A DNA stretch of 64,000 nucleotides from an uncultured bacterium (GCA_964356335.1 CAYHHI010000013.1:2974-66973), one strand, 5' to 3'. Shown: positions 2,096 through 44,075, counted from the stretch's first letter. Notes: generated by a model not told the origin, from the letters alone. Made by a program: numbers and translations.

Positions 2096-3442
2096 CTAGA
2101 GCATGAAAACGTCTACCAGGTCATTTGCTGAGACTGATGCTTTGGCTTCCCCTATGCATATGAGGCAATCGGCTTCAGCAATATGAAGCACGTCTCCGGC
2201 ACCGCGCGATTTCAGTGGTTCGACTGCCATGCCTGCCTCGGGGCGAGGCGCCTGACCCCTGGTCGTTGTCGATTCATCTGGCGTAAGATTGGCCCGACAC
2301 CTGGCCGGTGCCCACCCATCCGGCTCGATATAAGCCTGCCGCACCACGCCCGGTATGAGTTTCGTGTAGCCTCTCTCCTTCTCTATCCCCGCTGTGGTTC
2401 TTGCCTTGAAGGGAGTGGGCAGAAAGTCGGCACATCCCATCATTCTCAGCAATCCCGGCTTCACCACCATCTCAAAGGAAACTATCGCAGCGCCAGGATT
2501 GCCGGGCACACCGAAAAACACAGTATTGCCTCTCCTGCCAAATACCATCCGTCTTCCTGGACTCATTCTGATCTCTCTGAGCCCTATCTCGGCGCCGATC
2601 TTCTCAAGGGCTCCAGGCACAAGGTCATACTCACCATCCGAGACACCGCCGCTCACAATCACGACATCGCAATCCCTGCAAGCCTCAATATGCCGGCCAA
2701 TATCGTCCCCGCTGTCGCCGCTTATCCCCACATCAACAACGTCACACCCAAGCCGAGATGCAAGCCCTGCCAGCGTTGGCGCATTCGAACTTCTCAGGCA
2801 TCCCGGTGAGGGATAAGTATCATAAGGGACTATCTCATCGCCCGTGGCAAAGACGCCGACGCGCGGCATCTTTGTAACAAGCACAGGATCTTGACCGAAG
2901 GCCGCAAGGACACCGGCAGTCCGCGGGGTGATACGCCTGCCCCTGAGATCTATCCGATCACCTTTCCTCGCGATCTCGCCCTTCTTTCGTACGAAAGTGC
3001 CCGGCGGTATGGGTTCCCGTAAGACAACCCGGGCGTCTCTTATCTCGGCATCTTCGGATTTGAGGACGGCATCACAGCCAGGAGGTAGAGTCGCTCCGGT
3101 CATGATAGAAACACATTCGCCGCGGTCAAGTCGCCGAGAAGGCATCTCGCCGGCCTTCACAACGCCGGCGATGCGAAGCAGAACAGGCTCGGCCGGGGTC
3201 GCCTCCAGCGTGGCAGAAGATTCGAAGCCGTAACCATCCATCGCCGACATGTCTGAGGGGGGGTAGTCAATGTCACTCGTGATGTCCTGTCGGATGATCC
3301 TGCCGAGAGCGTCCTTGAGAGGGGCCTTCTCAGATGCAAGGATTTTCACTGCTCCTGTCACTATAGCCTGCGCTTCTTCGAGACTCGCCGCGCGCTTTGG
3401 GTCACTGTGCATGGTAGGCTCCGAGGCTATCATCGGGTGCAA
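2096..3442 (-). CDS. moeA: molybdopterin molybdenumtransferase MoeA
   Basis: 448 aa with MoeA signatures (SAMDGYG, GDEIV, VIVSGGVSDGEYD, GNPGAA) and the MoeA C-terminal domain; TTG start codon. Confidence 0.85.
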   Translation of the reverse strand: MHPMIASEPTMHSDPKRAASLEEAQAIVTGAVKILASEKAPLKDALGRIIRQDITSDIDYPPSDMSAMDGYGFESSATLEATPAEPVLLRIAGVVKAGEMPSRRLDRGECVSIMTGATLPPGCDAVLKSEDAEIRDARVVLREPIPPGTFVRKKGEIARKGDRIDLRGRRITPRTAGVLAAFGQDPVLVTKMPRVGVFATGDEIVPYDTYPSPGCLRSSNAPTLAGLASRLGCDVVDVGISGDSGDDIGRHIEACRDCDVVIVSGGVSDGEYDLVPGALEKIGAEIGLREIRMSPGRRMVFGRRGNTVFFGVPGNPGAAIVSFEMVVKPGLLRMMGCADFLPTPFKARTTAGIEKERGYTKLIPGVVRQAYIEPDGWAPARCRANLTPDESTTTRGQAPRPEAGMAVEPLKSRGAGDVLHIAEADCLICIGEAKASVSANDLVDVFML

Positions 3443-3459
3443 GAGGTGTCAAGCGCGGC

Positions 3460-4611
3460 CTAAGTCCAGACACCCGGGATCGTGGTGCCGCATTTCGAGC
3501 ACTTGCCGTTGTCAAGATGCATCGAGAGAAGCGTGTAGCCGGCCCGCTTTATGACGTTCTGGCCGCATTGAGGGCAATAGGTGGACTCCCCCGGGTGACC
3601 TGTAGGCACGTTACCCACATAGACGAATTTGAGCCCCCGTGCCAGAGCGATTTCGCGAGCTCGCTCGACAGAGGAGACAGGCGTCGGAGGCAGATTGGTC
3701 AGGCGGAAGGTCGGATAGAAACGGGTGAAGTGAAGCGGAACCTGATTGCCGACATTGTCGGAAAGCCACTTGCACATCGTGTCTATCTCTCTCTCGTTAT
3801 CGTTGAGGGTAGGAATCACGAGATAGACAATTTCAACCCAGGTCCCAGCCCTCTTCACAGTCACTATCGAATCCAGGACCGGCTTGAGCGTTGAATTGCA
3901 CATCTTGGAGTAGAAGTCCTGTGTGAACGCCTTGAGGTCGATCTTTATGGCATCCATCTCGCGCGCAAGGAGAAGCAGGGGATCGCGGTTTATGTAGCCC
4001 GCCGATATCATGACGTTCCTGAGACGGGCGGCGCGGCCCTGCCTCGCAGTATCAAGCATGTATTCATAGTAAACAGTGGGTTCCGTGTAGGTGTACGCGA
4101 TCGTCGGAGCGGCGAGTCTTCGGGTTGCCTCAACCGCCTTCTCGGGAGGCATGTTTGACGCATCCACATTCTCCGGCCTTTCCTGCGATATTTCCCAATT
4201 CTGGCAGAACTTGCATTCCATGTTGCAGCCGACAGTGGCAAGTGAGAAGGCCATGGTCCCGGGAAGAAAGTGGAAGAGGGGTTTTTTCTCTATGGGGTCA
4301 ACGTGGTAGGTGCACACCCGGCCGTATACAACCGTGTAATACGTGCCCTTGAGATTCTCCCGGACTCCGCAATAGCCTCGCTCGATGTCATCAATCACAC
4401 ACTGTCTCGGACAGACCAGGCAGCGAATCCGTTCATCCGGAAGCTTCTCATAGAACATCGCCTCTTTGTAGAACTCATTCTGCCCGGTTGCGCTCCCTTG
4501 TGCAAGGAGCCGACCGGGAGTGAGCGGCCCGGAGACTAGCCCTCCACCCATGGCACCGCAGGCACTGGCGCACACCGTCCTCACGAATTCCCGTCGCTTC
4601 ATCCCACGCAC
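3460..4611 (-). CDS. AmmeMemoRadiSam-type radical SAM enzyme (AmrS-like) with an N-terminal twin-arginine-like extension
   Basis: CNMECKFCQNWEIS (a Cx3Cx2C radical SAM motif plus the QNWEIS signature), RCLVCPRQCVI...GYCGVREN, PIEKKPLFHF and a C-terminal CPQCG...CSKCG zinc ribbon. The first ~45 aa, MRGMKRREFVRTVCASACGAMGGGLVSGPLTPGRLLAQGSA, look like a Tat signal. Confidence 0.75.
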   Translation of the reverse strand: MRGMKRREFVRTVCASACGAMGGGLVSGPLTPGRLLAQGSATGQNEFYKEAMFYEKLPDERIRCLVCPRQCVIDDIERGYCGVRENLKGTYYTVVYGRVCTYHVDPIEKKPLFHFLPGTMAFSLATVGCNMECKFCQNWEISQERPENVDASNMPPEKAVEATRRLAAPTIAYTYTEPTVYYEYMLDTARQGRAARLRNVMISAGYINRDPLLLLAREMDAIKIDLKAFTQDFYSKMCNSTLKPVLDSIVTVKRAGTWVEIVYLVIPTLNDNEREIDTMCKWLSDNVGNQVPLHFTRFYPTFRLTNLPPTPVSSVERAREIALARGLKFVYVGNVPTGHPGESTYCPQCGQNVIKRAGYTLLSMHLDNGKCSKCGTTIPGVWT

Positions 4612-4699
4612 CCCAATCGCTTACAAGCCTCCCGATGCTCCCGATGAAGGGATCCCTGCCGATCCCCTTGATATCGGTCCGCAATGCTGCCAGCTCGCA

Positions 4700-5695
4700 T
4701 CAATCTTGAATCTCCACGATTTCGATCTTCTCGAGATCACTGCACCCGACGCCTCTTCTGCCTGCAGTGAAAACATACTCCGCCCTGCGGCCTTGCTCGG
4801 CAAGAGAGGGAATCCCGGCTTCTCGCCTTTTCTTCTCGATGAGATCAAGGCATACGCGGTCAACTGCCACCGCATCAAGGCCAATGACAAGACCTTTGAA
4901 TTCCCACCGGTACTTTGATTTGTAGCCTGGGCCGCCGTTGTAAGCTCCGACAAGTCCGTCGACCACAGAGAGTCTATGCCTTTCTCTGATAACAGGTGCC
5001 TGGTACAGATCGGCAACATATGGATCACAACCGTTGGGATGATACTTGTTCGGATTGTGTATGACACCGTAGAAATTCTTCATGCACCCGGAAATGCCGG
5101 CAATCCCATGGTCTTTGAGGACCGCAAGGCTTATCACGGAATCACAGTGTTCGGTGAGGACCCTGCTAAACTTGGAGCCTACGGCGCCGGACTCCCTCAG
5201 GGAGCTCTCGTAGCCCATCCCTTCCGAGTCGGTGGCAAGACACTCGATATTTCCATCACGCTTGATTTGAAAACCCGCGCTTGCCATCTCGTGCTCACTC
5301 CGATCCCAGATGGTGACCCTGGCGCTCTCGATCTTGCTGACGATAAGGTCTGCAAGCCCATAGGCCACTTCCCTCCTGGTCGCGAGCGGTCTCCCTCCAA
5401 GGCAGTTGATCTTGATCCCAATCCGGCTTGAGCCACCGAGAATGGCCTTCAAGGGTTCCGCTGGCCTTGGATCCAAGAGCTCGCGGAGACCGGTTTCAAG
5501 CAACACGGAGACTCGCTGCGGGACAGGCTCGCCATCCCTGAGAACTCCGCTGTCTCGAGCTATGACAACTCTGGATTGGCCGGGCGGTTTGGTTTCACCT
5601 GCACGAAGGACTGAACTGAGCAGGCTCGCAGACAGGGGAAGGCCGACCGAAAGAGCGCCGAGCTCTTTGATGAACCGCCTTCTGGTTTTACCCAT
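4700..5695 (-). CDS. DUF362 domain protein with Tat signal peptide
   Basis: N-terminus MGKTRRRFIKELGALSVGLPLSASLLSSVL fits the RRxFxK Tat consensus followed by a hydrophobic region. The body matches DUF362 (IKINCLGG, LKDHGIAGISGCMKNFYGV, VVDGLVGAYNGGPG, GLDAVAVDRVCLDL). Confidence 0.7.
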   Translation of the reverse strand: MGKTRRRFIKELGALSVGLPLSASLLSSVLRAGETKPPGQSRVVIARDSGVLRDGEPVPQRVSVLLETGLRELLDPRPAEPLKAILGGSSRIGIKINCLGGRPLATRREVAYGLADLIVSKIESARVTIWDRSEHEMASAGFQIKRDGNIECLATDSEGMGYESSLRESGAVGSKFSRVLTEHCDSVISLAVLKDHGIAGISGCMKNFYGVIHNPNKYHPNGCDPYVADLYQAPVIRERHRLSVVDGLVGAYNGGPGYKSKYRWEFKGLVIGLDAVAVDRVCLDLIEKKRREAGIPSLAEQGRRAEYVFTAGRRGVGCSDLEKIEIVEIQD

Positions 5696-5753
5696 CTTTG
5701 TGGCCTCTTCCTCAATCTAAAAGATGGGTAAAGTCAATGTCAACAAAACAAGA

Positions 5754-5794
5754 GGGTTGTGCCCTCGCCGCGGGGAATCACGAAGGCACAACCC
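5754..5794 (-). terminator. Rho-independent terminator downstream of the sigma factor gene
   Basis: Perfect 10-bp inverted repeat GGGTTGTGCC (5754-5763) / GGCACAACCC (5785-5794) with a 21-nt loop. On the minus strand it is followed by UCUUGUUUUGUUG (rc of 5741-5753). It sits 12 nt past the stop codon at 5806. Confidence 0.55.
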
Positions 5795-5805: not shown

Positions 5806-6759
5806 TCACATTCTTGTTACGAGTAGTCTCTGCATCCTCCTCTTTTTCATCAGCGTTCGCATTTTTTGAATTGCTCTCTTCTCGATCTGCCTGATTCGCT
5901 CGCGCGTTATCCCGACCATCTTACCTGTTTCGGCGAGCGACCTCAGGTTCCCGTCCTCAAGCCCGAAACGGTAGGCCAGTATCTGCCGTTCTCGCTCGGA
6001 GAGATCATTAAGAAGAGCATCAAGCCGCCTCGAATCTATCCTGCCGAGAGCGTCCTCATCGGGCGGCATGTTTGACTGGTCGGTAAGGACCTCATGGAGG
6101 CTGACCTCACCGTCAGGAGAGCATGGCGAATCAAGTGATACGGTGGACGCGGCATTCGTTATCTCGGCATATCTCACCGCAGAGATGCCTATGCGGCGGC
6201 ATACCTCGGTTTCACACGGCAGGGTGTTTCTCGTCTGTATAAGACTCTGCTCCATGACCCTGACCCTGCGCATGATGTCAATCACGTTCGCGGGCAATCT
6301 CACCGTTCTCGAGTCTGTTGCCAGCGCCTTTGTTATCGCCTGTCTTATCCACTTCGAGGCATAAGTGCTGAATCTGAAGCCCTTCTCATACTTGAAACGC
6401 TCGACAGCCTTTATGAGGCCGAGGTTGCCTTCGCCTATCAAATCAGTAAGCGGCAGGCCCATGCCCCGATATCTCCGTGCAATCGCCACCACAAGCCTCA
6501 GGTTGGCTCCGATCATCTTCTCCTTGGCCATCGGGTCCCCCCTTCTCACGCGCAAAGCGACAACCTGCTCTTCGCCTTTTGTGAAGAGAGGAATCCGGCT
6601 TATGGCTTTAAGGTAAAGAGCCAAGCTCTCCGCTGCCCATTCAGCACCGACACCTGGCGATCGCGTTAGCAAGGATTCATCCTCTGCTTGATATTGCCTC
6701 AGGGAGATCTCGGGATCCTCTTCGTCGATGAAGGGTCGGTCCAACATCGCCTCATCCAT
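5806..6759 (-). CDS. sigma-70 family RNA polymerase sigma factor (group 1/2, RpoS/RpoD-like, 317 aa)
   Basis: Regions 1.2 to 4 recognisable: LRLVVAIARRY, DLIGEGNLGLIKAVERFKYEKGFRFSTYASKWIRQAI, region 4 LSERERQILAYRFGL...ITRERIRQIEKRAIQKMR. Confidence 0.85.
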   Translation of the reverse strand: MDEAMLDRPFIDEEDPEISLRQYQAEDESLLTRSPGVGAEWAAESLALYLKAISRIPLFTKGEEQVVALRVRRGDPMAKEKMIGANLRLVVAIARRYRGMGLPLTDLIGEGNLGLIKAVERFKYEKGFRFSTYASKWIRQAITKALATDSRTVRLPANVIDIMRRVRVMEQSLIQTRNTLPCETEVCRRIGISAVRYAEITNAASTVSLDSPCSPDGEVSLHEVLTDQSNMPPDEDALGRIDSRRLDALLNDLSERERQILAYRFGLEDGNLRSLAETGKMVGITRERIRQIEKRAIQKMRTLMKKRRMQRLLVTRM

Positions 6760-6846
6760 CCTTCGGTGCCCACCCCTGGTTCTGGCCCCGCCTGGAGCCT
6801 CGACCTACAGGAGACGAGGGGCTCACCGTAGTCACTAAGGTAAACC

Positions 6847-6862
6847 GCAAGTTTTGTGCCGG
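6847..6862 (-). promoter_or_regulatory. sigma-54 (-24/-12) promoter candidate upstream of the sigma factor gene
   Basis: The minus strand reads cCGGCAC-aaaac-TTGC (forward GCAA 6847-6850, N5, GTGCC 6856-6860, GG 6861-6862), with GG-N10-GC spacing exact. It lies ~90 nt upstream of the ATG at 6759, in the 314-bp gap between the EBP gene and the sigma factor gene. Confidence 0.5.
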
Positions 6863-7073
6863 AACGTAACCCTGCACTGCAATTTCGTTGCAATCTATTT
6901 GGCTCTAAATCAACAGGTTACAAATGCTGCTCTCTCGAGATCGCAGAGTATGATGTGGGAATGATTCGTCTGTGTAACCGAACTTCACACGCAGATGGGC
7001 TGAAACGTGGAGATGTAGGAAAGACGGGACTTCGCGATGGGAACAAGAGTCACAGAACAGGTGTGAACTTACT

Positions 7074-10000
7074 TCACGGAACGATGCGGTAGCGTTGGAT
7101 TTTGTTGAGGAGCCCGCGCCTACTGAGGCCCAAGTTCCTGGCAACCTTGCTCTTGTTGCCGTTGAAACGATACAGCGCCTCCCTGATCATCTGCCTCTCG
7201 ATCTGTTCAACAGCTTCGACGAGGCCATGCCTACCGTCAGAGCCGACAATGCTTCCCCAGGTGCGCAGCTCATCAGATAAGAAAGCCGGTGTGATCGCCT
7301 CTCCGTCCTCAACGAAAGTGACCGCCCTCTCGACCTCGTGCTCGAGCTGCCTGACGTTGCCCGGCCACGAGTAACTCACGAGAAGGTCCATTGCAGAGGG
7401 AGCGAACCCCGCCACCGCCTTTTCCATCTCGCCGGTGTATTTCTCGAGGAAGTACTCGGCAAGAAGCGGTATGTCATCGCGCCTATCGCGGAGAGCCGGC
7501 AGCTTCAAGGATATGACCTTCAACCTGTAGTAGAGGTCTTCAAGAAATCTCTCGCCTTCCACTTCTTTGGCAAGATCCTTATTGGTTGCACATATCAGCC
7601 TGAAATCAGCCTTCTTCGAGACCGTTGACCCCATGGGCTTGAATTCTCGTTTGTCAACGACCTGGAGCAACCTGTCCTGGAATTTTCTGGAAGTCTTGTC
7701 TATCTCATCCAGGAAAACCGTACCGCCCTCCGCGGCTTCGAAAAGACCGGTTCTGTCGGCCCTTGCATCAGTAAAGGCACCCTTCACATGACCGAAGAGC
7801 TCACTCTCCACAATCTCAGTCGATAGTGCCGAGCAGTCAATCGTCACGAAGGGCCTACTGCACCTGTCTCCGCTCAGATGAATAGCCCTTGCAAGCATCT
7901 CCTTGCCGGTCCCCGTTTCACCCTCGACCAGGACCGTGGTTGATGTCTTTGCGAGGAACCTCACAGACTCGAGAATCTCCAGCATCTTCTTGTTCTGGCT
8001 GATGATCCCCTGGACGTGACAGGATGCCTCGAGCTTGCTCCTCAAGAACCTTGCCTCTTCCATGAACCTCGCCAGCTGCGCCTCGGAGAGCACGCTCTTC
8101 AAGATGCCGACTATGGCGACAACGAACTCGACGTCACTTCGGGTGAAGAAGTGATCCGCACAGTCGGTATCGAGGTATATGCAGCCTACCGTGTCGCCTC
8201 TCAGCGTAAGGGGAACGCACATCACGGCGCCCTGGAGGACTCCTGCCGTGGCCAGGCCGGCCAGCCGTTCATCTTTACCAATGTTCGCGCTGACAAGCGG
8301 CCTGTTCAAATCCTCTGCAATCCTGAGTATCGTCTCCACGGCCGGTACGGCTTGCGTACACTGCCGGGTCTCAAGATCCTTCGACGCGAGAGGTTCGAGC
8401 TTCCCATTGCGCCTGAGAAGGATCAGCCCCCTCTCAGCCGAAGTCCTGTCCACACAGGCGTCAAGCGCCAGCTGCAACTTACTCGCCTGGTCTCCGGCAC
8501 CGAGGATGCGAGCCATAATCACATTGAAGACTGACAGATCCCCGGAGTCACTCACCGACAGGCATGAAATCTGCTCATCCGCCTGCTTCTGAATGCTTTC
8601 GATATCATCAGCGAATATGCTGGGAATGTCACCGCCAAATATCTGCATCAGCTTGTCGAGATACTTGCGACACTGCTCTACGTCTCCCCGCACAGCCGCA
8701 ATCCTGCCTAAGGCCACAGCGGAGAGCCCAGCTTCATAAACCATCTCAAGCTCTTCAAAAATCCCCAACGCCTCGGTAAGATAACTCGCGGCAATGTCGC
8801 CGGAAGATGATTGGGTGGAAAGCAGCTGTCCCGCTCTCAGATAGGTCAACCCCAGCTCTTTCCTCTCCCCCAGGGAATAGAGCAAGTTTATCGACTTGGC
8901 GAAGGTCTCTCTAGCTTTTTCCCACTCTCCGAGTCCAAACTCTGCACAAGCCTTTGACCGCAGGGCACAACCCTGCTCGAAGACCTCCTTGAGGTCCACT
9001 GCCAGTCTATACGCCTCTCGAGCGAGCTCAAGGGCGGCAAGGTAATTCGTGCGAGCCGACTCGACGTCCGCAAGCCTTCGCTTGACCTCCACGACAACGT
9101 CGCCCTGGGGTGCGATCTCCTCGCCGATCTCAAGCGCCTGAAGGTAATGGCGATGAGCCGAATCGATCCGGCCGCACGCCATTTCCACGTCGCCCACATA
9201 TTCGAAGCTCAGCGCAGACCCGCGGGCATCACCGTTGTCGGAGCTTTCTTTCATCGCAAGCACATAGTATTGCTGGGCCCGCTCGACATCCCGGTAGGTA
9301 AGGTAGTAGTGGCCGAGAGCGAGATATACCGACACCAGCTCCCACCTGTTGCCGATCCTTGCAAGGACTTCCAAGGCCTCAGTCCAACACCTGTGGGCCT
9401 TCTTCCAGTACCCTCGCTTCGAGTAGATTATGCCGAGATTGGTGAGGCGCACACCTTTCTGAAGATGCTGCCCGACTTCCTCAGAGATCCGCAAGGCTTC
9501 CTCAAGATAGGCCTGAGACTCAGACCAAAGCCCGAGGTTCTTGCACGCAAGACCGAGGTTATTGAGGCACGTGCCTACCAGTTCCTTGTCATTGACGACC
9601 CGCGCCACCGACAAGGCGGACCGAAGGAACTCAAGGGCTCTCTCGGTGTCTCCCTTCCTGGCGTACACTCCGGCGAGGCAGTTATAAGTGTCGACCAGCT
9701 CTTTTCCCCTGCCCCCAGCAAGCATTATCTCCAGAGCTGATTCGCAATCTGCCTGGGAAAGATCGTACTCCCCTATCTTGAAATGCACCCATGCCCTCTC
9801 GCTAATTATGCGCGCGAGCTCGACCGTGTCTTCGCCCTCTGATACCAGCATGAAAGCCTTGTCCAGGAGCTCAAGGGCATGGTCGCACTTGCCAATCCGC
9901 ATATAGCAGATGGCCAATCTTCTGAGCAAAGAAGCTCGTCGAGGGTTGAGATCCTTGGAGTTGCCGGTTAGAGCCAGGAGCTTCGTAAAATAATCTATTG

Positions 10001-10524: not shown

Positions 10525-11211
10525 TCAATCCTCAAAAAGGTCATCGGCAGACGGAAGCACAATCTTTCCGGTTGCTTCTTCCTTGGTCTTGCATTTCACG
10601 CAAAGCCTTGCCGAAGGCATAGCTTCAAGCCGCTTCACCCCAATCGGCTTGCCGCACCGCTCACATATGCCATAGGTTCCTTCCTTCAACTTCTCGAGAG
10701 CCGTAGCGATTTCCCTGAGAGCGTTGACACCGGCTTCACTATACTCAAAAGCCTTCTCTTTCTCGACGGAGGCCGAGACAAGATCGCCGACTTCGGCAAA
10801 GCTGGTACGGTCGATTTCCAAGCTATCAGCACGGGCACGCTTGATCTTCTCCAGAACCTCTGCTCCCTTGGTCTCAAGCATAGCCTTCAGCTTCTGTACT
10901 CTGGGTGAAACCACCCTGGCCCGGACCCGTGGCCTTCTGCTTGCGGCAGGGCCCACCCTCTTGGTTGGCGCCCCCCCTTTCCGCACAGTGGCGATCGCGG
11001 GCTTACGAGGCTTACGTCGCGCACCAGTCTTCGCCCCCGGTCTTCTGGGAGCTTTCCTAACGGCTTTCCGGGTAGGCTTCTTAGCCGCTTTCTTGCTGAT
11101 TTTCTTAGGAGTCTTCTTCCTGGCTTTCATCTTAGGTTTTCTCTCGCGCTTACCGGCCGGTCTACGAGTGCGTCCTCGCCGCCTTGCCTTGAGTGTCGTC
11201 CCAGAAGCCAT
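10525..11211 (-). CDS. DksA/TraR-family C4 zinc-finger protein with a ~110-aa lysine/arginine/proline/alanine-rich (histone H1-like) N-terminal tail
   Basis: C-terminal CERCGKPIGVKRLEAMPSARLCVKCK (Cx2C-x17-Cx2C) preceded by a coiled-coil-like region. The N-terminal 113 aa are KARRRGRTRRPAGKRERKPKMKARKKTPKKISKKAAKKPTRKAVRKAPRRPGAK... (>45% K/R). Confidence 0.75.
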   Translation of the reverse strand: MASGTTLKARRRGRTRRPAGKRERKPKMKARKKTPKKISKKAAKKPTRKAVRKAPRRPGAKTGARRKPRKPAIATVRKGGAPTKRVGPAASRRPRVRARVVSPRVQKLKAMLETKGAEVLEKIKRARADSLEIDRTSFAEVGDLVSASVEKEKAFEYSEAGVNALREIATALEKLKEGTYGICERCGKPIGVKRLEAMPSARLCVKCKTKEEATGKIVLPSADDLFED

Positions 11212-33285: not shown

Positions 33286-36200
33286 TTAGAAGCGGATGAG
33301 GACGGAAACGCTCAGACCAATGGTTCTCCAGGTCTGTTCGAGCTTGCGGTCGGTGGTCTGCTCGAAGCGTGCATCGGCGGAGCCTGTGACGCTGGTGCTG
33401 AAGCTATAGCTTGCTTTGGGACTGATGGTAAATGTCCTCGTGCTGCTGTCTATCCTGTTCTTGAACGAAGGTGTGGTGCCCACACGTGACTCGAAGGACA
33501 AGTCCAGAGATACTGTGAGGCTGCTCTTGAACTTCAATGTCCTGCCAGCGAGCGGGATGTACATGCCTTCCGGAGCGCTGAAGGAATGTCTCAGCGAGAA
33601 GTTAGCGGAATTTGAGACGAACTTCTTCTCGCTTCCAGTACCCTTAGTGTCCTCAGTGGTGTTACTGCTACGCCGGAGATTGAAGGTCGTCCGCACACCG
33701 TTCTTCCACGTTGCATCCCAGCCGATGACCGGCAGCCACTCCGACCGGTGCCCGCGATTGGTCTCTGTGGCACCCACGCCACTCGCCTGCCTCGACCGCT
33801 TGTAGCCCACCGTGATCGAGGAAGTCTTTACGGCTCCCCTGAAAAGCGGCAGATAGACCGTCGAAGAGATGTTGCCGGCAACATCAGGCCAGACGGTTTG
33901 CCTGTCAAAGGTTGTCGCACCGGCATAGGTCCTCGTTTTCTTGTCATGCTTGTACTTGGTGGTCAGGGAAACTGTCTCGACAGGCTTGAATTCCGTGGAA
34001 ACGTCGTAGCCGTCATTCCTCGTGATCTCATCAGTGGGCAGTCCGGCTCCGCCTGACGTTCCTGCGCCCGAGGGCCTCAGGATAGCGTCCTTATCCACCT
34101 GAGGATCTATTCCGAGTTGAAACCTCAAACCCGGCCGTTTCATAAGCTTGTTGTATCTGGAGCTTCTGTCAACGAAGTAGCCGACATCGATATCTGGAAT
34201 CATGGCAAGGACTCGCCTGTAAATGGGCACTCCGGTTGTATCGGCTCCCTTTTGCGGGGCAGACAAGAACGAAGAAGGCTGAAGCAGGAGATCAATGCTC
34301 GACCTGCTTGAGACGGATGCTCGTCTGACCCCTGGCGGATCATTCGCCGAGCGCACGGAAGGATCGGAATTCTCATCATAGTTGACGTCATAACTCACGG
34401 ATGGTTTGAGTATCTTGCCTATGGTAGGCCTCAGGGTGGCACCCGCTCTCTGGTTCCGATTGAGTTCCCATCCCAGACCGACGCTTGACAGTATCGGCAC
34501 CTGCTTGTTTTGATCGAGGTCCCGCATGGTCTTCAGGCTGTAGTCAGTCTCCAGCGAAGGACCGGTGAGAGGTTTGACCGAAATGGCAAAGTTACCTCTG
34601 ATCTCCCTCGTGTACTGGTTTTTCTTCATAATCTTCTGGCGCTTGTCGAACTCCTTTTCGGTCTTTGTCCAACCGGAAACGGCGAAATCCATACCTTCAG
34701 GAAAATAGGATATTGCATAGCCCCTGTAGATTCTCAGTGAATGGTTCCACCAGGGCTTGAAGGCGTAAGCAAGATTCCCATTGTAGCCGTTTGAGGCGGC
34801 ATCCGACTCGGGTGACTTTCCCTGCCTGCGTGCAAAGGACACCCTTCCGGAAAGGGCGTCGAAGGTAAGCTTCATGAGCAGGTTGTTCGATTTCTGCCTC
34901 CGAGAGAAGGCCAGACTGTAGTTGTTATCGACCGACGTTCGCTCCTCTTTTTTTCGCTGCTGCGGCGTCGTAAGAGCGACATCGGACCGGCTGCTCAGAG
35001 TGGGCAACGACCGGGCAGTGTGATAACCCACCGAGAACGGCAGGGACATCCCGAGTGGGGGAAGGAATCTGTCAAGTGAGGTGGATCCTGATAGGGAGAG
35101 ATCGGTATCATCAGATCCTCTTCTGGTGCCCCCGAGGTTCTGAAATTCGGTGTCGGTCTGCTTGAGATCGGCACTGACGCTCATCACATCCGACAAGGCC
35201 GCCCCCACCGAGATTCGCTTTGCAACCCCCATCTCACGGCGCACATCAGTCAGTCTCAGATCATCAAACCAGACTTCAACCGCAGTGTCGCTCGTTGGAG
35301 CTGTCCCGCGGTTCACCACACCCGCGCCGATCCGCGATACCCTCGTTATGGAAGGCTCACCATAGACTGCGATCCAGGTGGCTTCAGTCAGGGGCCTCTC
35401 CCTCCTCAAAACCGGCTTGCCATAGAGGGTGACCGTCGTCGTATCCATGCTTGTCTTGAGGTTGGTTATCTCATCAAGCTTCAACCGGACGTCACTCCAG
35501 CCAGGGGTCACCTTCATGCCGTATTCGTAGAAGTTGATACTGTCCGCACCTATCCTCAGGAAGAAGCTCAGATCTTCAGCGGATGCATTCGGGTCGCCAT
35601 GGACATAAAACGCGAGGGTATGGTAGAGGGTGTAGTCACCGGCATTTCCCGGCAAGGTCTTGTAAACCGACCCGCAGTTTCCCGCTTCGAGGTTCCGGAG
35701 GCCGAATACCAGCGACTGCTCCCGCTTCTTGTAGCCCTCAGGATCTGTACCGGGATCATAGGGTGGATCATAACTCGGGTCATCTCGCGTGTTCTTGGCT
35801 GATATTTCAAAGGACTCTCGGGGAAGCCGCTCGACGCGGGCCATGTCTTCCTTCCTGCGTATTCCCTCCTCGAGCCAACTCGCGCCCGAGATTTGCAGGT
35901 AGGCTAGCTGGAAGACTGAAGGTGTATCGACGCCGGTGAAGAAGAAGCGGACATATCTTATTGATTTCCAGCTGGGCGAGCCGCCGAGCGCGTCCGCATC
36001 GGCCAAAGGAATCATGTAGTGGCACCAATCCCCCGAACGCCCCACAATGTAAGTGGTGTCGGAGAGGTCAAAACCTAGTCTAAAGAGGACCTCGTCTTTG
36101 TCGAGGTTCCCATTACCGTCAATGTCTTCGGTATCGGGTACCAAATTGGGGTCGCCCTCGGTGCCGTTTATGTGGGAGTAGTCTCCTTCACTGTAAGACC

Positions 36201-38940
36201 AGTTGTCCTCATACTCCACCTGGTCGTCGCCTGGCTGGCCATCGGGTATGCCGTCAAGTCCCGTGTTCTCGTCTTCACTCAGCTTGCCGTCACTATCCTT
36301 GTCCTCGGTGTTAAGCGTGTCGGCCCAGGGATGGTAGAAGTTCTCGCTCACGGCACCAAGGTCAACGTACATCTTCCCCCTGTGGCCCTCCTTCTTCCTG
36401 AGCCAGACTTCGAGAAACCTGAGATCCGAGTAATCGCTTCCGGTCTTTGACACAAGCCGCTCAAGCCCCGACCACTGCTTGGCTGTGTCAGGATCCGGAG
36501 CAACCCAGCCATATGCGAACTTCCTGAAGTTGATTTCAAGAACCGGAATGAAGGCTTCCCCTGGACGGGACTCCGCCTCTGGGAAGAGATCCTGCTCCTT
36601 GACTTCCCTGTCCTTGACGTACCACCAGATCTTGCGGTTGTCCCTGTAGTAGAAATCTGTCGGGGGACTTGCGGGCACCCAGGCTTCCCGGATCAGCGAA
36701 AAAGACCTCAAGTCCCTCACTCCTTCCATATCATCTATGTAGACATCACGCTTGGTATTGGGATTGGGAAAACTTGCCGCCACTTCGGCTGAGATTGACA
36801 GTCTTGAGGGGCTTTGTGCCTGGACCATGGGAAGCGCATTGGTGATCGCGGTCATCCACTTCGGCTGGAATTCCAGCCGCGTATTGACGTCGCCGACCAT
36901 GATCTGAGAAGGTTCCTGGCCCAGCCTGGGCCGTTCCTCGGGGGATTTCTTGCTCTGGTAGATCCAGGCCGTACTCAAGTAGGACTGTTCCGAGAACTTG
37001 TAGGTGCCCTGGATGCCCAAAAGAGATTGCTGGGCTAAAGCGAGGAAGGGCACATATTGGTAATCTACGGTTATCTGTGCATCGGGACTCGCCGCTTCGT
37101 CGATCTTGAATCTTATCTGCCCCACGTCATAATAGATCTCATAGTCAACATTGCGCGTGAGCCGCCTTCCGTTGAGCGTTACGGTCTCGCTTCCCTCAAG
37201 GATATTGACATTGTTCAACTTGAATATGGTCTGCGGGGTGGAGAACCAGACCACCATATAGTACTTGCTGTTCTCGGGCTTGAGCTTCCTGGGATGAATG
37301 TCGTAAATATCGGGGTTTCCATCATCGAGAGTCTCCGGTCTGGCATCCATCAGCTGTATGTCGGGATCGAAGGGCCTGAGGTCTGGAAACAGGAGCAGCC
37401 CCAGCTCGCCGTTTACGGTTCCGCCGTCGGCATACCCGTCCGTGCGCCAGCCGTTTGCCGGGCTCGCTTTCACATTGCTCTCATCCTCAAGGTCTATCCC
37501 GAGAACCTTCGAATACTCATACTGCCGCTGGACGTCCTTGACATCTCCGCCCGGGTCCTTGCGGTAAATCTTCACCAAGACCTTCCCCTCGGAGACGTAG
37601 CTCGCGCCGAGCGAATAGACGTTCTTGCGCTCATACCTGAGGGTACCGCCCCAGAGTCCCTCCTTTTCTATCATGTCCGTCTCGGTCGGGCGTATCATCT
37701 TCAGCAAGCGCACGTTCTTGTCACCATACCCACCATACCCGCCCACCACCATGTCGCCCCACTTGTAAGTGACAGCCAGCGTATGCGCGGCATCGAGGGC
37801 TCTGAGGAGCGAGATCTCACCGGTACGCTGGTCTATCGCATAGTCTCTGTTACGCTCAAGGATGTCGAAGAAGCCGTGATAGGTCGAGTCCGCCCAGCCG
37901 GCGGAATCCGATGGCACCCTGTCAGGATCAAGCAAAGCATAAGCCTCGACCGCACCCTCACCGATGTTGTTATTGCCGTTGCCGTCATCCAGGTAAACTT
38001 CGACCTCGGTGACTTCAGGGCAGGGCTCGGGCGCAATCTTGCGGCAGTATTCAAGCCTCTCATAGGGATCAATCATGAAGAAGTATTTGTTCTTGACAAA
38101 GTCCATGTCTGAGAGTCTTACCGAATCTCGCTCAGCCGCTCCCACGAATCGCGCCCCGGCAGTTCTGCCTTCCTGCTTGCTGGCGATCACGGTCATATCC
38201 ATGGCCCCTAGCTTAGCAAGCACCTTGGCTCCGAAAAGACCCTGGTGCTGTTCGCTGTAGCCCACAAACTGGGAACCCGGCATGGACAGGTTGGTATTAC
38301 CCATTTCCACACTCTGCACGATCTCGTCGTCATCGCCCTTGTAATTGAGCTTTATGCGGTTCTCAAGGGGTGTTTCGACATCGCTATCGTGATGAACCAG
38401 TACGTTTATTTTCTCGCCCACGGTTCCCTTGAGGTCTATCCTGAGATGCTGCTTCATATTGAGCTGAGGAAACTTAGATGGTCTTCCGTATTCGGTCAAA
38501 GGTTGATTTACCCTGTATCTTGTCTGGCCGCCGAAGGTGATCTGTTCGCTGCCGGTGACGCTCAAGTTTGCTCCCTGCCCGATCACTCGGCCTATGGTCT
38601 TGGGGAACTTGACCGGTATGTCTATGCTGCTGAAGTCTCGAAGGGACATCGCATGTTCCTCAAAGACCCTGCCCGAGCCGGCTTTGATCCAATTCTCCCT
38701 GAGAGCGCCGTTGAAATCCTGCTCAAGCACCGGCTTCTGCATGAATTCGGGGAAGGCGAACCGCGGGCCGAGATTTGTACCGCTCGAAGGAAACCTGAGC
38801 GAGACTTCCGATGTGGGGCCGGCCGAGAGGCTGTCAGAGGACGTTCCGAAGCCAAGGGAGTCAGCGCCCTCGGAGACGCTTACGTATCCGAAGACCAGAA
38901 GCCCAAAGATTATGGCCCAGTAACCATCATGTGCTCTCAT
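33286..38940 (-). CDS. giant (1884 aa) secreted outer-membrane protein with Asp-rich Ca-binding-like repeats and a C-terminal beta-barrel; possibly SprA/Sov-like (T9SS translocon family), unverified
   Basis: Signal peptide MRAHDGYWAIIFGLLVFGYVSVSEGA; Asp/Gly-rich segment DKDSDGKLSEDENTGLDGIPDGQPGDDQ...DIDGNGNLDKDE; alternating beta-strand-like C-terminal ~600 aa ending ...GLSVSVLIRF (terminal Phe, OMP signature). One uninterrupted ORF. Confidence 0.8.
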   Translation of the reverse strand: MRAHDGYWAIIFGLLVFGYVSVSEGADSLGFGTSSDSLSAGPTSEVSLRFPSSGTNLGPRFAFPEFMQKPVLEQDFNGALRENWIKAGSGRVFEEHAMSLRDFSSIDIPVKFPKTIGRVIGQGANLSVTGSEQITFGGQTRYRVNQPLTEYGRPSKFPQLNMKQHLRIDLKGTVGEKINVLVHHDSDVETPLENRIKLNYKGDDDEIVQSVEMGNTNLSMPGSQFVGYSEQHQGLFGAKVLAKLGAMDMTVIASKQEGRTAGARFVGAAERDSVRLSDMDFVKNKYFFMIDPYERLEYCRKIAPEPCPEVTEVEVYLDDGNGNNNIGEGAVEAYALLDPDRVPSDSAGWADSTYHGFFDILERNRDYAIDQRTGEISLLRALDAAHTLAVTYKWGDMVVGGYGGYGDKNVRLLKMIRPTETDMIEKEGLWGGTLRYERKNVYSLGASYVSEGKVLVKIYRKDPGGDVKDVQRQYEYSKVLGIDLEDESNVKASPANGWRTDGYADGGTVNGELGLLLFPDLRPFDPDIQLMDARPETLDDGNPDIYDIHPRKLKPENSKYYMVVWFSTPQTIFKLNNVNILEGSETVTLNGRRLTRNVDYEIYYDVGQIRFKIDEAASPDAQITVDYQYVPFLALAQQSLLGIQGTYKFSEQSYLSTAWIYQSKKSPEERPRLGQEPSQIMVGDVNTRLEFQPKWMTAITNALPMVQAQSPSRLSISAEVAASFPNPNTKRDVYIDDMEGVRDLRSFSLIREAWVPASPPTDFYYRDNRKIWWYVKDREVKEQDLFPEAESRPGEAFIPVLEINFRKFAYGWVAPDPDTAKQWSGLERLVSKTGSDYSDLRFLEVWLRKKEGHRGKMYVDLGAVSENFYHPWADTLNTEDKDSDGKLSEDENTGLDGIPDGQPGDDQVEYEDNWSYSEGDYSHINGTEGDPNLVPDTEDIDGNGNLDKDEVLFRLGFDLSDTTYIVGRSGDWCHYMIPLADADALGGSPSWKSIRYVRFFFTGVDTPSVFQLAYLQISGASWLEEGIRRKEDMARVERLPRESFEISAKNTRDDPSYDPPYDPGTDPEGYKKREQSLVFGLRNLEAGNCGSVYKTLPGNAGDYTLYHTLAFYVHGDPNASAEDLSFFLRIGADSINFYEYGMKVTPGWSDVRLKLDEITNLKTSMDTTTVTLYGKPVLRRERPLTEATWIAVYGEPSITRVSRIGAGVVNRGTAPTSDTAVEVWFDDLRLTDVRREMGVAKRISVGAALSDVMSVSADLKQTDTEFQNLGGTRRGSDDTDLSLSGSTSLDRFLPPLGMSLPFSVGYHTARSLPTLSSRSDVALTTPQQRKKEERTSVDNNYSLAFSRRQKSNNLLMKLTFDALSGRVSFARRQGKSPESDAASNGYNGNLAYAFKPWWNHSLRIYRGYAISYFPEGMDFAVSGWTKTEKEFDKRQKIMKKNQYTREIRGNFAISVKPLTGPSLETDYSLKTMRDLDQNKQVPILSSVGLGWELNRNQRAGATLRPTIGKILKPSVSYDVNYDENSDPSVRSANDPPGVRRASVSSRSSIDLLLQPSSFLSAPQKGADTTGVPIYRRVLAMIPDIDVGYFVDRSSRYNKLMKRPGLRFQLGIDPQVDKDAILRPSGAGTSGGAGLPTDEITRNDGYDVSTEFKPVETVSLTTKYKHDKKTRTYAGATTFDRQTVWPDVAGNISSTVYLPLFRGAVKTSSITVGYKRSRQASGVGATETNRGHRSEWLPVIGWDATWKNGVRTTFNLRRSSNTTEDTKGTGSEKKFVSNSANFSLRHSFSAPEGMYIPLAGRTLKFKSSLTVSLDLSFESRVGTTPSFKNRIDSSTRTFTISPKASYSFSTSVTGSADARFEQTTDRKLEQTWRTIGLSVSVLIRF

Positions 38941-41599: not shown

Positions 41600-41636
41600 A
41601 AGTCAGGGAGTCACTCAGTTGCTATGTTCCTGACTT
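41600..41636. terminator. imperfect hairpin between convergent lptG and ahcY (possible bidirectional terminator)
   Basis: AGTCAGG (41601-41607) pairs with CCTGACT (41629-41635), 21-nt loop; overlaps the ahcY stop codon; no clear U-tract. Confidence 0.25.
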
Positions 41637-42875: not shown

Positions 42876-42923
42876 TTGAACCTCCTCGGAGATGCTCCAC
42901 GAGAGACGTTTCTATGTATGCTC

Positions 42924-44075
42924 TCAGAGATATTTCTTGAGATCAGCGGCCCTGTCGGTGACCTCCCAGGTGAACCCTTCCTCCTCACGTCCGAAGTGGC
43001 CGTAGGCAGCCGTCCGCCGATACACAGGGCGTCTGAGCTTAAGCTGCTCGATGATGGCCCTGGGTCTAAAGTCGAATTGCTTCAGCACGATCTTCGCCAA
43101 CTCCTCGTCATCCATGACGCCCGTGCCCTGGGTGTCGACCATTACCGAGACGGGCTGGGCCACACCGATCGCATACGCGATCTGGACCTCGCACTCTCCG
43201 GCAAATCCCGCTGCCACAACGTTCTTGGCGACGTAGCGCGCCATATAGGAACCCGACCGGTCAACCTTCGTAGGATCCTTTCCCGACAGGCAACCACCGC
43301 CGTGACTGCCGAAACCACCGTAGGTGTCAACCACAATCTTCCTTCCCGTGAGACCGCAGTCCCCCTGAGGCCCTCCGATCACGAACCTGCCGGTCTCGTT
43401 TACGAAGATCTTCATTCCGGCTTTGTCAACAAGTGACTTAGGAATGACCTGGTTTATCACCTTTGCTTCAATGTTCTGCCTTATCTGTTTGTCAGAGGCA
43501 TCCGGGTGGTGCTGAGCAGCAATAACCACGGATCTCACAGCGACCGGCTTGCCGTCATCGTACTCGACAGTCACCTGGGATTTGCCATCAGGTCTCAAGT
43601 AAGGTATGGTGCCGTCTTTCCTTACCTCAGCCAGCTTCCGCACCAGCCGGTGTGCCAGTAAGATGGGCAGAGGCATCAGCTCCGGAGTCTCATTGACGGC
43701 ATACCCAAACATCATGCCCTGGTCGCCGGCCCCTTCCCTGTCCACTCCCATAGCAATATCGGGTGACTGCTCGTGGATTGAGGTGAGCACGGCGCAGGTC
43801 TCGAAATCGAACCCATACGTTGCATCGGTGTACCCGATATCCCTTATCACGCCCCTCACCACGCCGGGTATCTCGACATAGCAATCAGTGGTTATCTCAC
43901 CTGCGACAAGAGCCAGACCCGTTGCTACAAGTGTCTCACACGCAACTCTCCCGTTAGGATCCTTCCCAATAATCTCGTCAAGGATCGCATCGGATATCTG
44001 GTCGGCTACTTTGTCCGGGTGACCCTCAGTGACTGACTCCGACGTGAACAGGTGCTTCTGCTTGTTCATATCCAC
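42924..44075 (-). CDS. metK: S-adenosylmethionine synthase
   Basis: [23 protein letters not shown]-like and DTYGG motifs; 383 aa. Confidence 0.95.

Follow-up and report, generated by a model that had tools for sequence, protein, structure and literature searches.

Can a radical SAM (rSAM) enzyme be a substrate of the twin-arginine (Tat) pathway? Classical Tat-exported Fe-S proteins transfer electrons and can do without a diffusible co-substrate, whereas radical SAM enzymes use SAM and a low-potential reductant in every turnover. If exported, such an enzyme would act where neither SAM nor reductant is known to be available. The question is raised by a 64,000-nt stretch of DNA from an uncultured bacterium (GCA_964356335.1 CAYHHI010000013.1:2974-66973), called the window here, in which positions 2096-5695 hold a gene set that includes an AmrS-type rSAM gene. 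A first-pass annotation had proposed that the rSAM protein and its DUF362 neighbour both carry twin-arginine signals, and had remarked on an adjacent moeA gene and on the absence of the usual Memo and AMMECR1 partners.

Gene order and context of the locus

The DUF362 gene, the rSAM gene and the moeA gene follow one another in the same direction on the minus strand (Table 1), and their ORF coordinates agree with those of the first-pass annotation. In a consensus scan, a promoter-like TTGACA-18-TAGATT site was found 19 nt 5' of the DUF362 ATG, and no terminator-like site was found between the DUF362 and rSAM genes on the minus strand. These promoter and terminator sites are suggestive only, since their total in the region was not above the shuffled expectation. 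The gap between the two genes is 5 nt in the relative L081, and in L082 the rSAM ATG follows immediately on the DUF362 stop codon; the genes are thus predicted to be translationally coupled in these relatives. The window ORFs include LPS-transport and lipid A genes, so the source organism should be a diderm that possesses a periplasm. The Pfam-scanned ORFs of the window included no tat genes.

Table 1. Features of the DUF362-rSAM-moeA locus (coordinates within the window).
Feature	Position (nt)	Strand	Basis
DUF362-family gene, 331 aa, first of the pair	4700..5695	-	PF04015
rSAM gene (AmrS), 380 aa from ATG	3460..4602	-	TIGR04337, PF04055
Alternative rSAM start (GTG), adds MRG	3460..4611	-	Sequence
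MoeA-family gene, downstream	2096..3442	-	MoeA_N, MoCF_biosynth, MoeA_C (Pfam)
DUF362 twin-arginine leader, residues 1 to about 33	5597..5695	-	TIGR01409 score, homologue conservation
rSAM twin-arginine leader	4495..4602	-	Homologue conservation
Canonical AmrS core from internal Met (MFYEKL...)	3463..4458	-	TIGR04337 match
Radical-SAM motif CNMECKFC	4227..4204	-	Alignment of 34 homologues
DUF362/rSAM intergenic spacer, 88-97 nt	4612..4699	-	Sequence
Terminator-like hairpin of upstream sigma-70 gene, then promoter-like site	5714..5766	-	Consensus scan

The rSAM protein belongs to the AmrS family

The rSAM protein scored 386.8 bits against the AmrS model TIGR04337 (cut-off 220) and was also matched by PF04055. 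The TIGR04337 match covered residues 52-382 of the ORF numbered from the GTG, starting at the internal Met (residue 52) of AMFYEKL. Among relatives, Tat-leadered, Sec-leadered and leaderless forms likewise passed the model, with 355-394 bits. The core contains an N-terminal CxxCPxxC...C motif, the CxxxCxxC motif (CNMECKFC) and a C-terminal CPxC...CxxC motif, and every Cys of the three was invariant in a 34-sequence alignment (A1) that included the window protein. Since the catalytic core is strongly conserved and its Cys motifs are invariant, the enzyme is predicted to be functional.

The best PDB match of the AlphaFold2 model (pLDDT 87 overall) was 3cb8, the PFL-activating enzyme of E. coli (E = 2e-12; target-normalised TM-score 0.79), and JGI labels most of the rSAM homologues as PFL-activating enzyme. 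Assignment as a glycyl-radical activase was rejected, as PFLA gave 44.2 bits (cut-off 231.75) and PFLE_PFLC 37.5 (cut-off 174.35); activase NCBIfam models reached 44-46 bits, far under cut-offs of 232-250. The likeness to glycyl-radical activases is therefore structural only. The window ORFs that were scanned included no gene for a glycyl-radical enzyme.

Both proteins carry conserved leaders of the twin-arginine type

As quoted in the first-pass annotation, the window rSAM protein begins M(RGM)KRREFVRTVCASACGAMGGGLVSGPLTPGRLLAQG... and the DUF362 protein MGKTRRRFIKELGALSVGLPLSASLL.... The rSAM leader, MK-RREFVR-TVCASACGAMGGGLVSGPLTPGRLLAQG, has RR and F in the consensus stretch K-R-R-E-F-V-R, with atypical residues at +4 and +5. 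In the DUF362 leader, MGKT-RRRFIK-ELGALSVGLPLSASLLSSVLRAG, the consensus T-R-R-R-F-I-K is present. The h-region of each leader is rich in G, A, S and L. The rSAM leader ends LLAQG|S, only a plausible signal-peptidase site, and the DUF362 leader has no clear AxA site. In the AlphaFold2 models the rSAM leader lies outside the fold (pLDDT <50 at residues 11-40), and the DUF362 fold (pLDDT 89 for the model) begins near residue 41, with pLDDT 49-63 over residues 1-40.

Scores against Tat models differed between proteins. The window rSAM leader matched no Tat HMM at E<=1. PF10518 matched 38 of 73 orthologous rSAM leaders (best E = 1.5e-6), the Rieske Tat-leader model PF10399 matched 14 of the 73, and the orthologue P0117 passed TIGR01409 with 17.9 bits (cut-off 16.7). 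Against this last model the DUF362 leader scored 16.4 bits, i.e., 0.3 bits under the cut-off.

The motif xRRxF(L/I)(K/R), together with a hydrophobic stretch after it, was present in about 100 of the 120 best rSAM database matches, and a twin-arginine motif was present in 110 of 120 DUF362 matches; both sets span many phyla. Across the 34 aligned rSAM sequences (53-78% identity), RR was invariant and F(+2) was conserved in at least 90%, and outside RR and F the leaders varied in length and sequence. RR was likewise invariant, and F nearly so, among 37 aligned DUF362 homologues. Matches of either protein that seemingly lacked the motif look like miscalled starts, since they begin within the hydrophobic region; one such truncated call was checked (P0011/L082), and its true ORF start, MRRRRFLRTLCMGTCG, places an RR leader in frame upstream. 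Four variants carry a CxxCH motif after the leader, and Omnitrophota relatives in the same clade have very hydrophobic, Sec/SRP-like leaders. The two extensions are thus real, conserved leaders of the twin-arginine type whose RR is retained by orthologues. The first-pass annotation had named two observations that would speak against it, namely non-Tat N-termini and orthologues that begin at the downstream Met; for the family as a whole, neither was found.

The DUF362 protein is an apparently optional partner

The DUF362 protein matched PF04015 with 68.5 bits (cut-off 24) over the full length of the profile (1-200). When its model was compared with the PDB by Foldseek, the best matches were 9q3k, 9q3j and 4nar, which are LarA-like nickel-pincer-nucleotide enzymes (prob 1.0, TM 0.3-0.44). 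No PDB entry was matched by sequence or profile, and in Pfam there was no DUF2088 match at E<=0.01. An H..AG.SG..K motif was invariant among the 37 aligned homologues and may resemble the His/Lys cofactor-binding stretch of LarA. Judged from the model, the fold may be remotely LarA-like. DUF362 and DUF2088 belong to the same Pfam clan (PMC11770544).

The DUF362-rSAM pair moves as a unit among unrelated neighbourhoods. The close relative L084 lacks DUF362, which is therefore dispensable there. Thus, DUF362 appears to be an optional rSAM partner that is limited to one sub-clade and is also Tat-leadered.

Leader-bearing rSAM proteins form one clade with envelope-directed partners

All leader-bearing rSAM proteins fell into one NJ clade, apart from the leaderless archaeal and bacterial forms. 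This clade is a large, apparently undescribed branch of AmrS. Five of its members have no leader at all, and in three of these five the adjoining Memo-AMMECR1 fusion has a signal peptide. The earlier premise of a cytoplasmic AmrS thus applies to only one of the two clades recovered.

The loci counted comprised 47 of the Tat class (window included), 11 of the Sec type and 23 leaderless ones. A Memo-AMMECR1 fusion that passes the AmrB and AmrA models adjoins the rSAM gene in 21 of the 47 Tat-class loci and in 5 of the 11 Sec-type loci, and most of the listed fusions have a Sec-like or lipoprotein-like signal peptide of their own. A polytopic membrane protein with a SpeE (spermidine-synthase) domain was encoded in 25/47 Tat-class loci, compared with 3/23 leaderless loci; in the Sec class it was found in 7/11 loci, or in 11/11 by ORF clustering, and DsbD_2 in 6/11. 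Neither tblastn over the 64-kb window nor Pfam scans of 46 window ORFs turned up a homologue of Memo or AMMECR1. The reported absence of these partners is thus correct for the window and does not extend to related systems, where the fusion often adjoins the rSAM gene.

Export and alternative explanations

We give a little better than an even chance to the reading that the DUF362 and rSAM proteins are genuine Tat substrates and that the window encodes a reduced form of an envelope-associated AmmeMemoRadiSam variant. Starting from the family membership, leader conservation, clade structure and gene neighbourhoods observed here, we infer Tat export, leader cleavage, the site of catalysis and the substrate as follows. 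Both proteins would fold and load their cofactors in the cytoplasm, the rSAM protein its [4Fe-4S] cluster and the DUF362 protein possibly a LarA-like bound cofactor or a metal, and would then be exported, with probable loss of the leader, or tethered to the inner membrane on its outer side. The two genes would be a reduced version of a widespread variant whose full form has four to five parts: a leader-bearing rSAM protein, a Memo-AMMECR1 fusion with a signal peptide, a polytopic SpeE-like (SAM/dcSAM-binding) membrane protein and, additionally, a DsbD_2-type membrane protein in some lineages and DUF362 in one sub-clade. The rSAM enzyme probably acts on a protein or an envelope-bound substrate, like the PFL-activating enzyme, and the DUF362 protein may be its substrate or a cofactor-bearing partner.

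Export is favoured by the conservation of RR and F under selection, by the structural separation of the leaders from the folds and by the envelope-directed nature of the same-locus partners (Memo-AMMECR1, SpeE-domain protein, DsbD_2). The single leader-bearing clade, the four CxxCH variants and the Tat-HMM matches of orthologous leaders point in the same direction, as do the conserved rSAM core, the presence of a periplasm and the joint travel of the DUF362-rSAM pair. This reading is weakened by the missing Tat-HMM match of the window rSAM leader, the lack of a clear AxA site in the DUF362 leader, the five leaderless clade members and the dispensability of DUF362 in L084; in addition, the Sec/SRP-like leaders of the Omnitrophota clash with export of a pre-folded Fe-S enzyme. 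We also know of no periplasmic source of SAM or low-potential electrons.

An unlikely alternative is that the rSAM enzyme acts in the cytoplasm on a partner bound for export (DUF362 and/or Memo-AMMECR1) and that its RR leader serves co-targeting. The maturase could be held at the Tat translocon or at its substrate, the complex could be co-exported, or the leader could serve later disposal, in each case without an active periplasmic enzyme. Such a role fits the PFL-activating enzyme, the closest by structure, which modifies a protein substrate, as well as the predicted translational coupling in relatives, the clade members that are leaderless though their partner has a leader, and characterised rSAM enzymes with periplasmic products, which act before export, e.g., in HXS (PMC13128918). 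However, it gives no reason for the RR leader that the enzyme itself has kept, invariantly, in some 100 or more orthologues, and the Memo-AMMECR1 partners have Sec-type rather than Tat signals, so that each would have to cross the membrane unfolded and on its own. We know of no other maturase that bears a Tat leader.

It is rather improbable that the rSAM leader is a Tat-like segment that is vestigial or stays uncleaved and is used as a membrane anchor or as a chaperone/proofreading handle, with the catalytic domain on the cytoplasmic face beside the SpeE-like protein. Such a handle function is ascribed to the remnant Tat leader of NarG. Retention in the cytoplasm would remove the problem of SAM and reductant supply, and it is consistent with the atypical window leader that fails Tat HMMs, with the anchor-like N-termini of the Omnitrophota homologues and with the tight association with polytopic membrane proteins. 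However, textbook Tat signals (SRRxFLK and a moderately hydrophobic, G/A/S-rich h-region) with small residues before an acidic mature N-terminus are seen in many of the orthologous leaders. Moreover, most of the Sec-like forms have positive charges on the N-terminal side of the hydrophobic segment, from which an N-in, C-out topology is predicted, and the partner proteins have ordinary, cleavable-looking signal peptides.

A link to molybdenum-cofactor biology through moeA, such as the maturation of a Tat-exported molybdoenzyme, is highly improbable. Molybdoenzymes are classical Tat substrates, moeA follows the rSAM gene on the same strand after 17-47 nt in which no terminator-like site was found, and the order rSAM-MoeA-RecD2 is shared with L084. 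However, a MoeA homologue occurs in the flanks of only 1 of 80 other loci (L018, 4 kb from the rSAM gene) and is absent from the other 79, the gene 3' of rSAM in the Eisenbacteria relative L081 lies on the opposite strand, and the DUF362 protein has no similarity to molybdopterin-binding folds. The order in L084 is sigma70-rSAM-MoeA-RecD2-UvrA, and since the block runs on into RecD2 and UvrA, its rSAM-MoeA adjacency looks like housekeeping synteny. The window MoeA itself stayed below the equivalog level (best equivalog 288 bits, cut-off 440). The gene singled out earlier as a neighbour of interest thus recurs as lineage synteny only, and functionally it is probably not part of the module.

Finally, the possibility that the rSAM extension is an annotation artefact, the protein being a cytoplasmic AmrS that starts at the internal Met of AMFYEKL (nt 4458) behind an RR stretch in the 5' UTR, is effectively refuted by orthologue conservation: TIGR04337 begins exactly at this Met, AGAGG lies 2 nt 5' of it and several automated gene calls begin 3' of the RR motif, but the in-frame extension with invariant RR is kept across phyla at 41-78% core identity, AGAGG belongs to conserved K-E-A codons at a spacing too short for a ribosome-binding site, and the truncated call P0011 has its RR leader in frame upstream.

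Comparison with known systems

The S/T-RR-x-F-L-K leader of Tat-exported Fe-S proteins (hydrogenase small subunits, Rieske proteins, NrfC/DmsB-type ferredoxins) is shared with the rSAM family, and in both groups the Fe-S clusters must bind before transport. A literature search found no description of a radical SAM enzyme that is exported, secreted or located in the periplasm or elsewhere outside the cytoplasm. HxsB/HxsC of the HXS anti-phage system and the anaerobic sulfatase-maturating enzymes are cytoplasmic rSAM maturases with a periplasmic end product; the shared features are a PFL-AE-like enzyme and, as predicted here, action on proteins. In HXS, the effector HxsA alone has a signal peptide and the rSAM proteins were inferred to be cytoplasmic (PMC13128918), whereas the window rSAM enzyme itself bears a conserved leader.

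PFL-AE lacks the additional N- and C-terminal Cys-rich modules of the rSAM protein. LarA and the nickel-pincer-nucleotide racemases (CL0471, DUF2088) gave the only significant PDB matches of the DUF362 model, at TM of only 0.3-0.44; the DUF362 protein differs from LarA in its length of about 290 aa, the absence of the LarA C-terminal domain and its predicted Tat targeting.

For the canonical AmmeMemoRadiSam system (AmrA/AMMECR1, TIGR04335; AmrB/Memo, TIGR04336; AmrS, TIGR04337), no biochemical function has been established to our knowledge. The window rSAM protein passes the AmrS model and keeps the three Cys motifs. The canonical AmrS forms sampled (archaea, Nitrospira, Desulfobacterota) start directly at MKEAMFYEKL, are leaderless and form a separate clade. 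In contrast, the leader-bearing clade has an RR or Sec-like leader on the rSAM protein and a signal peptide on the Memo-AMMECR1 fusion, and it adds a SpeE-domain polytopic membrane protein, DsbD_2 or DUF362; the window itself holds the rSAM and DUF362 genes alone.

Conservation of the N-Terminal Leaders

The N-terminal leaders of AmrS, the AmmeMemoRadiSam-type radical SAM enzyme (rSAM), and of the adjacent DUF362 protein are real. Among the 120 database sequences most similar to the rSAM (52–99% identity), about 100 carry xRRxF(L/I)(K/R) at the N-terminus; a hydrophobic segment rich in G, A, S and L comes next, then small residues, and then the conserved (E)AxFYEKL strand. Across 34 aligned sequences, RR was invariant and the next F at least 90% conserved, and the rest of the leader varied freely in sequence and length, as would be expected for a targeting signal. 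For DUF362, the motif was present in 110 of 120 database matches and RR was invariant across 37 aligned sequences. AlphaFold2 models built from these alignments were confident (pLDDT of 89 for DUF362 and 87 for the rSAM), with folds beginning at about residues 41 and 45, respectively, and the leaders modeled as low-confidence helix and coil. Thus, the Tat-like N-termini proposed for both proteins in the first-pass annotation were borne out.

That annotation had also considered a start at the internal Met (nt 4458), which is residue 52, where the TIGR04337 match begins. Matches that seemingly lacked the motif start within the hydrophobic region. In the one such case checked, P0011 (a homologue in locus L082), the open frame extends upstream to MRRRRFLRTLCMGTCG, and the ATG of the rSAM directly follows the DUF362 stop codon. 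Therefore, leader conservation in orthologues, the corrected start of P0011 and the models refute the start at nt 4458. The AGAGG preceding it was dismissed as a ribosome-binding site: it consists of conserved Lys-Glu-Ala codons and lies just 2 nt from the ATG.

On TIGR01409, the DUF362 leader scored 16.4 bits (cut-off of 16.7), and the window's rSAM leader (KRREFVR) gave no Tat-HMM match, even at E ≤ 1. Pfam TAT_signal matched 38 of 73 orthologous rSAM leaders, at best with E = 1.5e-6, and the Rieske Tat-leader model matched 14; one rSAM orthologue passed TIGR01409. Judged by these profiles, the predicted Tat signal of the rSAM family is clear, and the window's own leader is a weak representative.

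In the sub-clade of the window, the h-region of the rSAM leader contains a conserved C-x3-C-G (VCASACGA, LCVGTCG, VCTGSCG). A lipoprotein reading was rejected, since the Cys lies only 7–11 residues after RR, too near for a normal lipobox, and charged residues occur within the span from which the PROSITE-type lipobox rule excludes them. Four RR-leader variants (L026, L035, L045 and L070, loci of other genomes) have a CxxCH segment inserted between leader and rSAM core (e.g., NCGTCHD, DCLKCHT, DCAACHS), which resembles a haem-c attachment site.

Leader Classes in the AmrS Family

When one genome per GTDB species was scanned, at least 598 AmrS loci were recovered; the best 80 of these were analyzed and their N-termini classified. 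An RR leader (KR in Bacteroidota and Ignavibacteriota) was found in about 47 loci from many phyla, a very hydrophobic Sec/SRP-like leader in about 11, mostly from Omnitrophota, and no leader (start MKEAMFYEKL) in about 23, typically from archaea, Nitrospira and Desulfobacterota. All three classes passed TIGR04337. A neighbor-joining tree of the AmrS cores split cleanly, with 18 leaderless enzymes on one side and all leader-bearing enzymes plus five short leaderless forms on the other. The leader-bearing clade spans Eisenbacteria, Acidobacteriota, KSB1, Zixibacteria, Planctomycetota, Desulfobacterota, Bacteroidota, Ignavibacteriota, Verrucomicrobia and Omnitrophota.

The Sec/SRP-like forms (L017, L019–L022, L027, L029, L032, L036, L037 and L040; e.g., MKKSLLLLILLLSVLFPAIGADQS) group with the Tat forms in one clade, often with a DsbD_2 membrane protein adjoining. 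Sec export of an Fe-S enzyme is contrary to expectation. The short enzymes of L024, L041, L053, L061 and L065 lack the leader and the first beta-strand, yet belong to the leader-bearing clade; the adjacent fusion of Memo (AmrB) and AMMECR1 (AmrA) keeps its signal peptide in L024, L041 and L065. In L033, tandem AmrS paralogues (6724–7722 and 8001–9116) are present: the downstream one begins with an RR leader, and the match to the upstream one starts at the core.

Database names for AmrS are "AmmeMemoRadiSam system radical SAM enzyme" or "pyruvate formate lyase activating enzyme"; membership of the PFL-AE/glycyl-radical activases was ruled out by profile scores. Sequence and profile searches of the PDB with the rSAM and DUF362 returned no matches.

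Partner Genes of Leader-Bearing AmrS

Neighboring ORFs in the window and the best 80 of the at least 598 loci were clustered and annotated with Pfam and NCBIfam. The Memo-AMMECR1 fusion, which passes the AmrB and AmrA models and in most copies has its own Sec-like or lipoprotein-like signal peptide, was found in 21 Tat-class and 5 Sec-class loci. Leader-bearing AmrS is also accompanied by a polytopic membrane protein of 700–800 aa with a central spermidine-synthase (SpeE) domain, detected by tblastn in 25/47 Tat-class, 7/11 Sec-class and 3/23 leaderless loci, and by ORF clustering in all 11 Sec-class loci. A DsbD_2 membrane protein occurred in 6/11 Sec-class loci. Therefore, partners are normally present in the leader-bearing clade and are themselves envelope-directed. 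Homologues of Memo, AMMECR1, the SpeE-domain membrane protein and DsbD_2 were not found in the 64-kb window. Hence, the earlier remark that the usual partners are not adjacent stands for the window and fails for the clade.

The SpeE-domain protein is the commonest neighbor of leader-bearing AmrS (L003–L080; e.g., L006:3004–5274 and L009:10688–13021), with 5–8 predicted transmembrane segments before and 4–7 after the domain (GGGxG...VELDP). A crude hydropathy scan with a positive-inside estimate gave 6 or 7 segments before the domain and assigned it to no side of the membrane.

The adjacency of moeA, to which the first-pass annotation had drawn attention, is treated as incidental. Among the other loci examined, MoeA homologues were found close to the rSAM in L084 alone, within a longer housekeeping block, and 4 kb from it in L018; in the Candidatus Eisenbacteria MAG, the gene after the rSAM is on the opposite strand. 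A functional link was rejected on the rarity of linkage, the Eisenbacteria gene order and the synteny of L084. The MoeA-family protein of the window (448 aa vs. 393 aa in L084) has an additional low-complexity stretch of about 40 residues ahead of or within domain IV, matches MoeA_C at residues 381–446 only and scores below every NCBIfam equivalog cut-off.

The DUF362 Partner

In 12 loci, all within one sub-clade (the window, L001–3, L005–10, L016 and L023), a DUF362 gene directly precedes the rSAM gene, and at least 8 of the 10 other DUF362 partners checked have RR leaders. Since the pair is found in unrelated neighborhoods, a functional unit is argued for. The partner is optional, however, because L084, a close relative with the exact synteny of the window (sigma70-rSAM-MoeA-RecD2-UvrA), has no DUF362.

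The only significant PDB matches of the DUF362 model were LarA-like nickel-pincer-nucleotide enzymes (prob 1.0, TM 0.3–0.44), in agreement with the Pfam clan CL0471 assignment (PMC11770544). The invariant family motif LKDH..AG.SG..MKN..G.IHNPNKYH...C.PY looks like a putative site for a cofactor or metal, and such a site would accord with Tat targeting. Extracellular DUF362 proteins have precedent, since fusions of DUF362 domains with CBM9 and dockerin modules are on record (PMC5742341).

Gene Context and Host

Directly upstream of the DUF362 ATG, a terminator-like hairpin is followed by a promoter-like site (TTGACA-18-TAGATT), and no terminator-like site was found in the interval from DUF362 to the rSAM gene or from there to moeA; all of these assignments are by consensus matching only. 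An Rfam scan of the window gave no matches.

Features of the window discussed in the text
Feature	Position	Strand	Remarks
RecD2-like helicase gene	after moeA, past left window edge		partial
MoeA-family protein	2096–3442	-	assigned by domain/profile matches
AmrS radical SAM enzyme	3460–4611	-	383 aa (GTG start, 4611) or 380 aa (ATG start, 4602); TIGR04337 386.8 bits (cut-off 220)
C-x3-C-G in AmrS leader	4549–4563	-	
DUF362 protein	4700–5695	-	331 aa; PF04015 68.5 bits (cut-off 24)
Sigma-70 gene and TPR-GAF sigma-54 activator	upstream of DUF362		
ORF with one hydrophobic segment	10174–10500	-	108 aa
DksA/TraR zinc-finger protein	10525–11211	-	
ORF with SprA_N domain (type IX secretion)	33286–38940	-	1884 aa
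SAH hydrolase, SAM synthetase (MetK); lipoyl synthase	41622–44075, 49681–50580	-	

The rest of the window is housekeeping and includes LptC/F/G, lipid A acyltransferase, Kds genes and a SprA-like protein; the host is therefore a diderm with a periplasm, and its gene content suggests that it is probably a member of the FCB group. The closest named genome is the Candidatus Eisenbacteria MAG, which shares the upstream gene order, and the SprA_N ORF is consistent with an FCB-group, Eisenbacteria-like origin.

The adjoining SAH hydrolase and MetK genes, about 37 kb from the rSAM gene, and lipoyl synthase, the second radical SAM gene of the window, look like ordinary housekeeping genes. The DksA/TraR protein has an unusually long N-terminal extension (about 110 residues, Lys/Arg/Pro/Ala-rich). 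Between its gene and the sigma-54 activator lies the 108-aa ORF, at whose position L081 (an Eisenbacteria relative) and L084 have a gene of 95–97 aa without Pfam match.

Possible Role at the Cell Envelope

Strong purifying selection acts on the rSAM core, which is structurally closest to PFL-activating enzyme; this argues for an active enzyme that probably acts on a protein or bound substrate. On balance, we lean towards both DUF362 and the rSAM being true Tat substrates: both would be exported by Tat, and the window would represent a reduced, two-gene form of an envelope-associated AmmeMemoRadiSam variant. The chief obstacles are that we know of no SAM or low-potential reductant in the periplasm, that enzymes from Omnitrophota carry Sec-like leaders, and that some members of the clade have no leader. 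Two rivals therefore still compete with this reading. The rSAM may work in the cytoplasm on partners that are soon exported, its leader serving co-targeting, which we consider unlikely. Slightly less likely still, the leader is a membrane anchor or a vestigial handle and the enzyme stays at the cytoplasmic face. The invariant RR leaders of AmrS together with the export signals of its partners imply either SAM-dependent radical chemistry in the periplasm or an unrecognized role of Tat leaders on maturases.

A whole radical-SAM pathway outside the cytoplasmic membrane is conceivable, although we regard this as doubtful. AmrS would be Tat-exported with its clusters loaded, Memo-AMMECR1 would be secreted, and in the sub-clade of the window a cofactor-bearing DUF362 would also be exported by Tat. 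The conserved SpeE-domain protein might provide or process SAM or dcSAM on the outer side of the membrane, electrons might come from DsbD_2 or from haem-c (CxxCH) modules, and the target would probably be an envelope lipid, isoprenoid or protein.

Radical SAM enzymes depend on SAM, on oxygen-sensitive clusters and on a donor of low-potential electrons and, to our knowledge, are treated as strictly cytoplasmic. Full-text literature searches found no paper on a radical SAM enzyme that is periplasmic, exported, secreted or extracytoplasmic, and none on a connection between AmrS and Tat. The abstract of Burroughs et al. 2019 (JBC) on Memo-AMMECR1-rSAM contexts reportedly ties Memo to nucleotide-base and isoprenoid modification, and part of the neighborhood picture may already have been published, most likely there. 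If true, the extracytoplasmic pathway would be the first radical SAM chemistry outside the cytoplasm. The leader-bearing clade as such assigns the Memo/AMMECR1/AmrS system, long an enigma, to a specific place that can be tested, the cell envelope, and ties the uncharacterized DUF362 family to it, which is relevant to radical-SAM and Tat specialists. In the papers found, "radical SAM" occurred with "twin-arginine" or "Tat signal" only in unrelated contexts or for the HXS system. There, the signal peptide is on the effector only (PMC13128918), whereas here the AmrS enzyme itself bears the leader.
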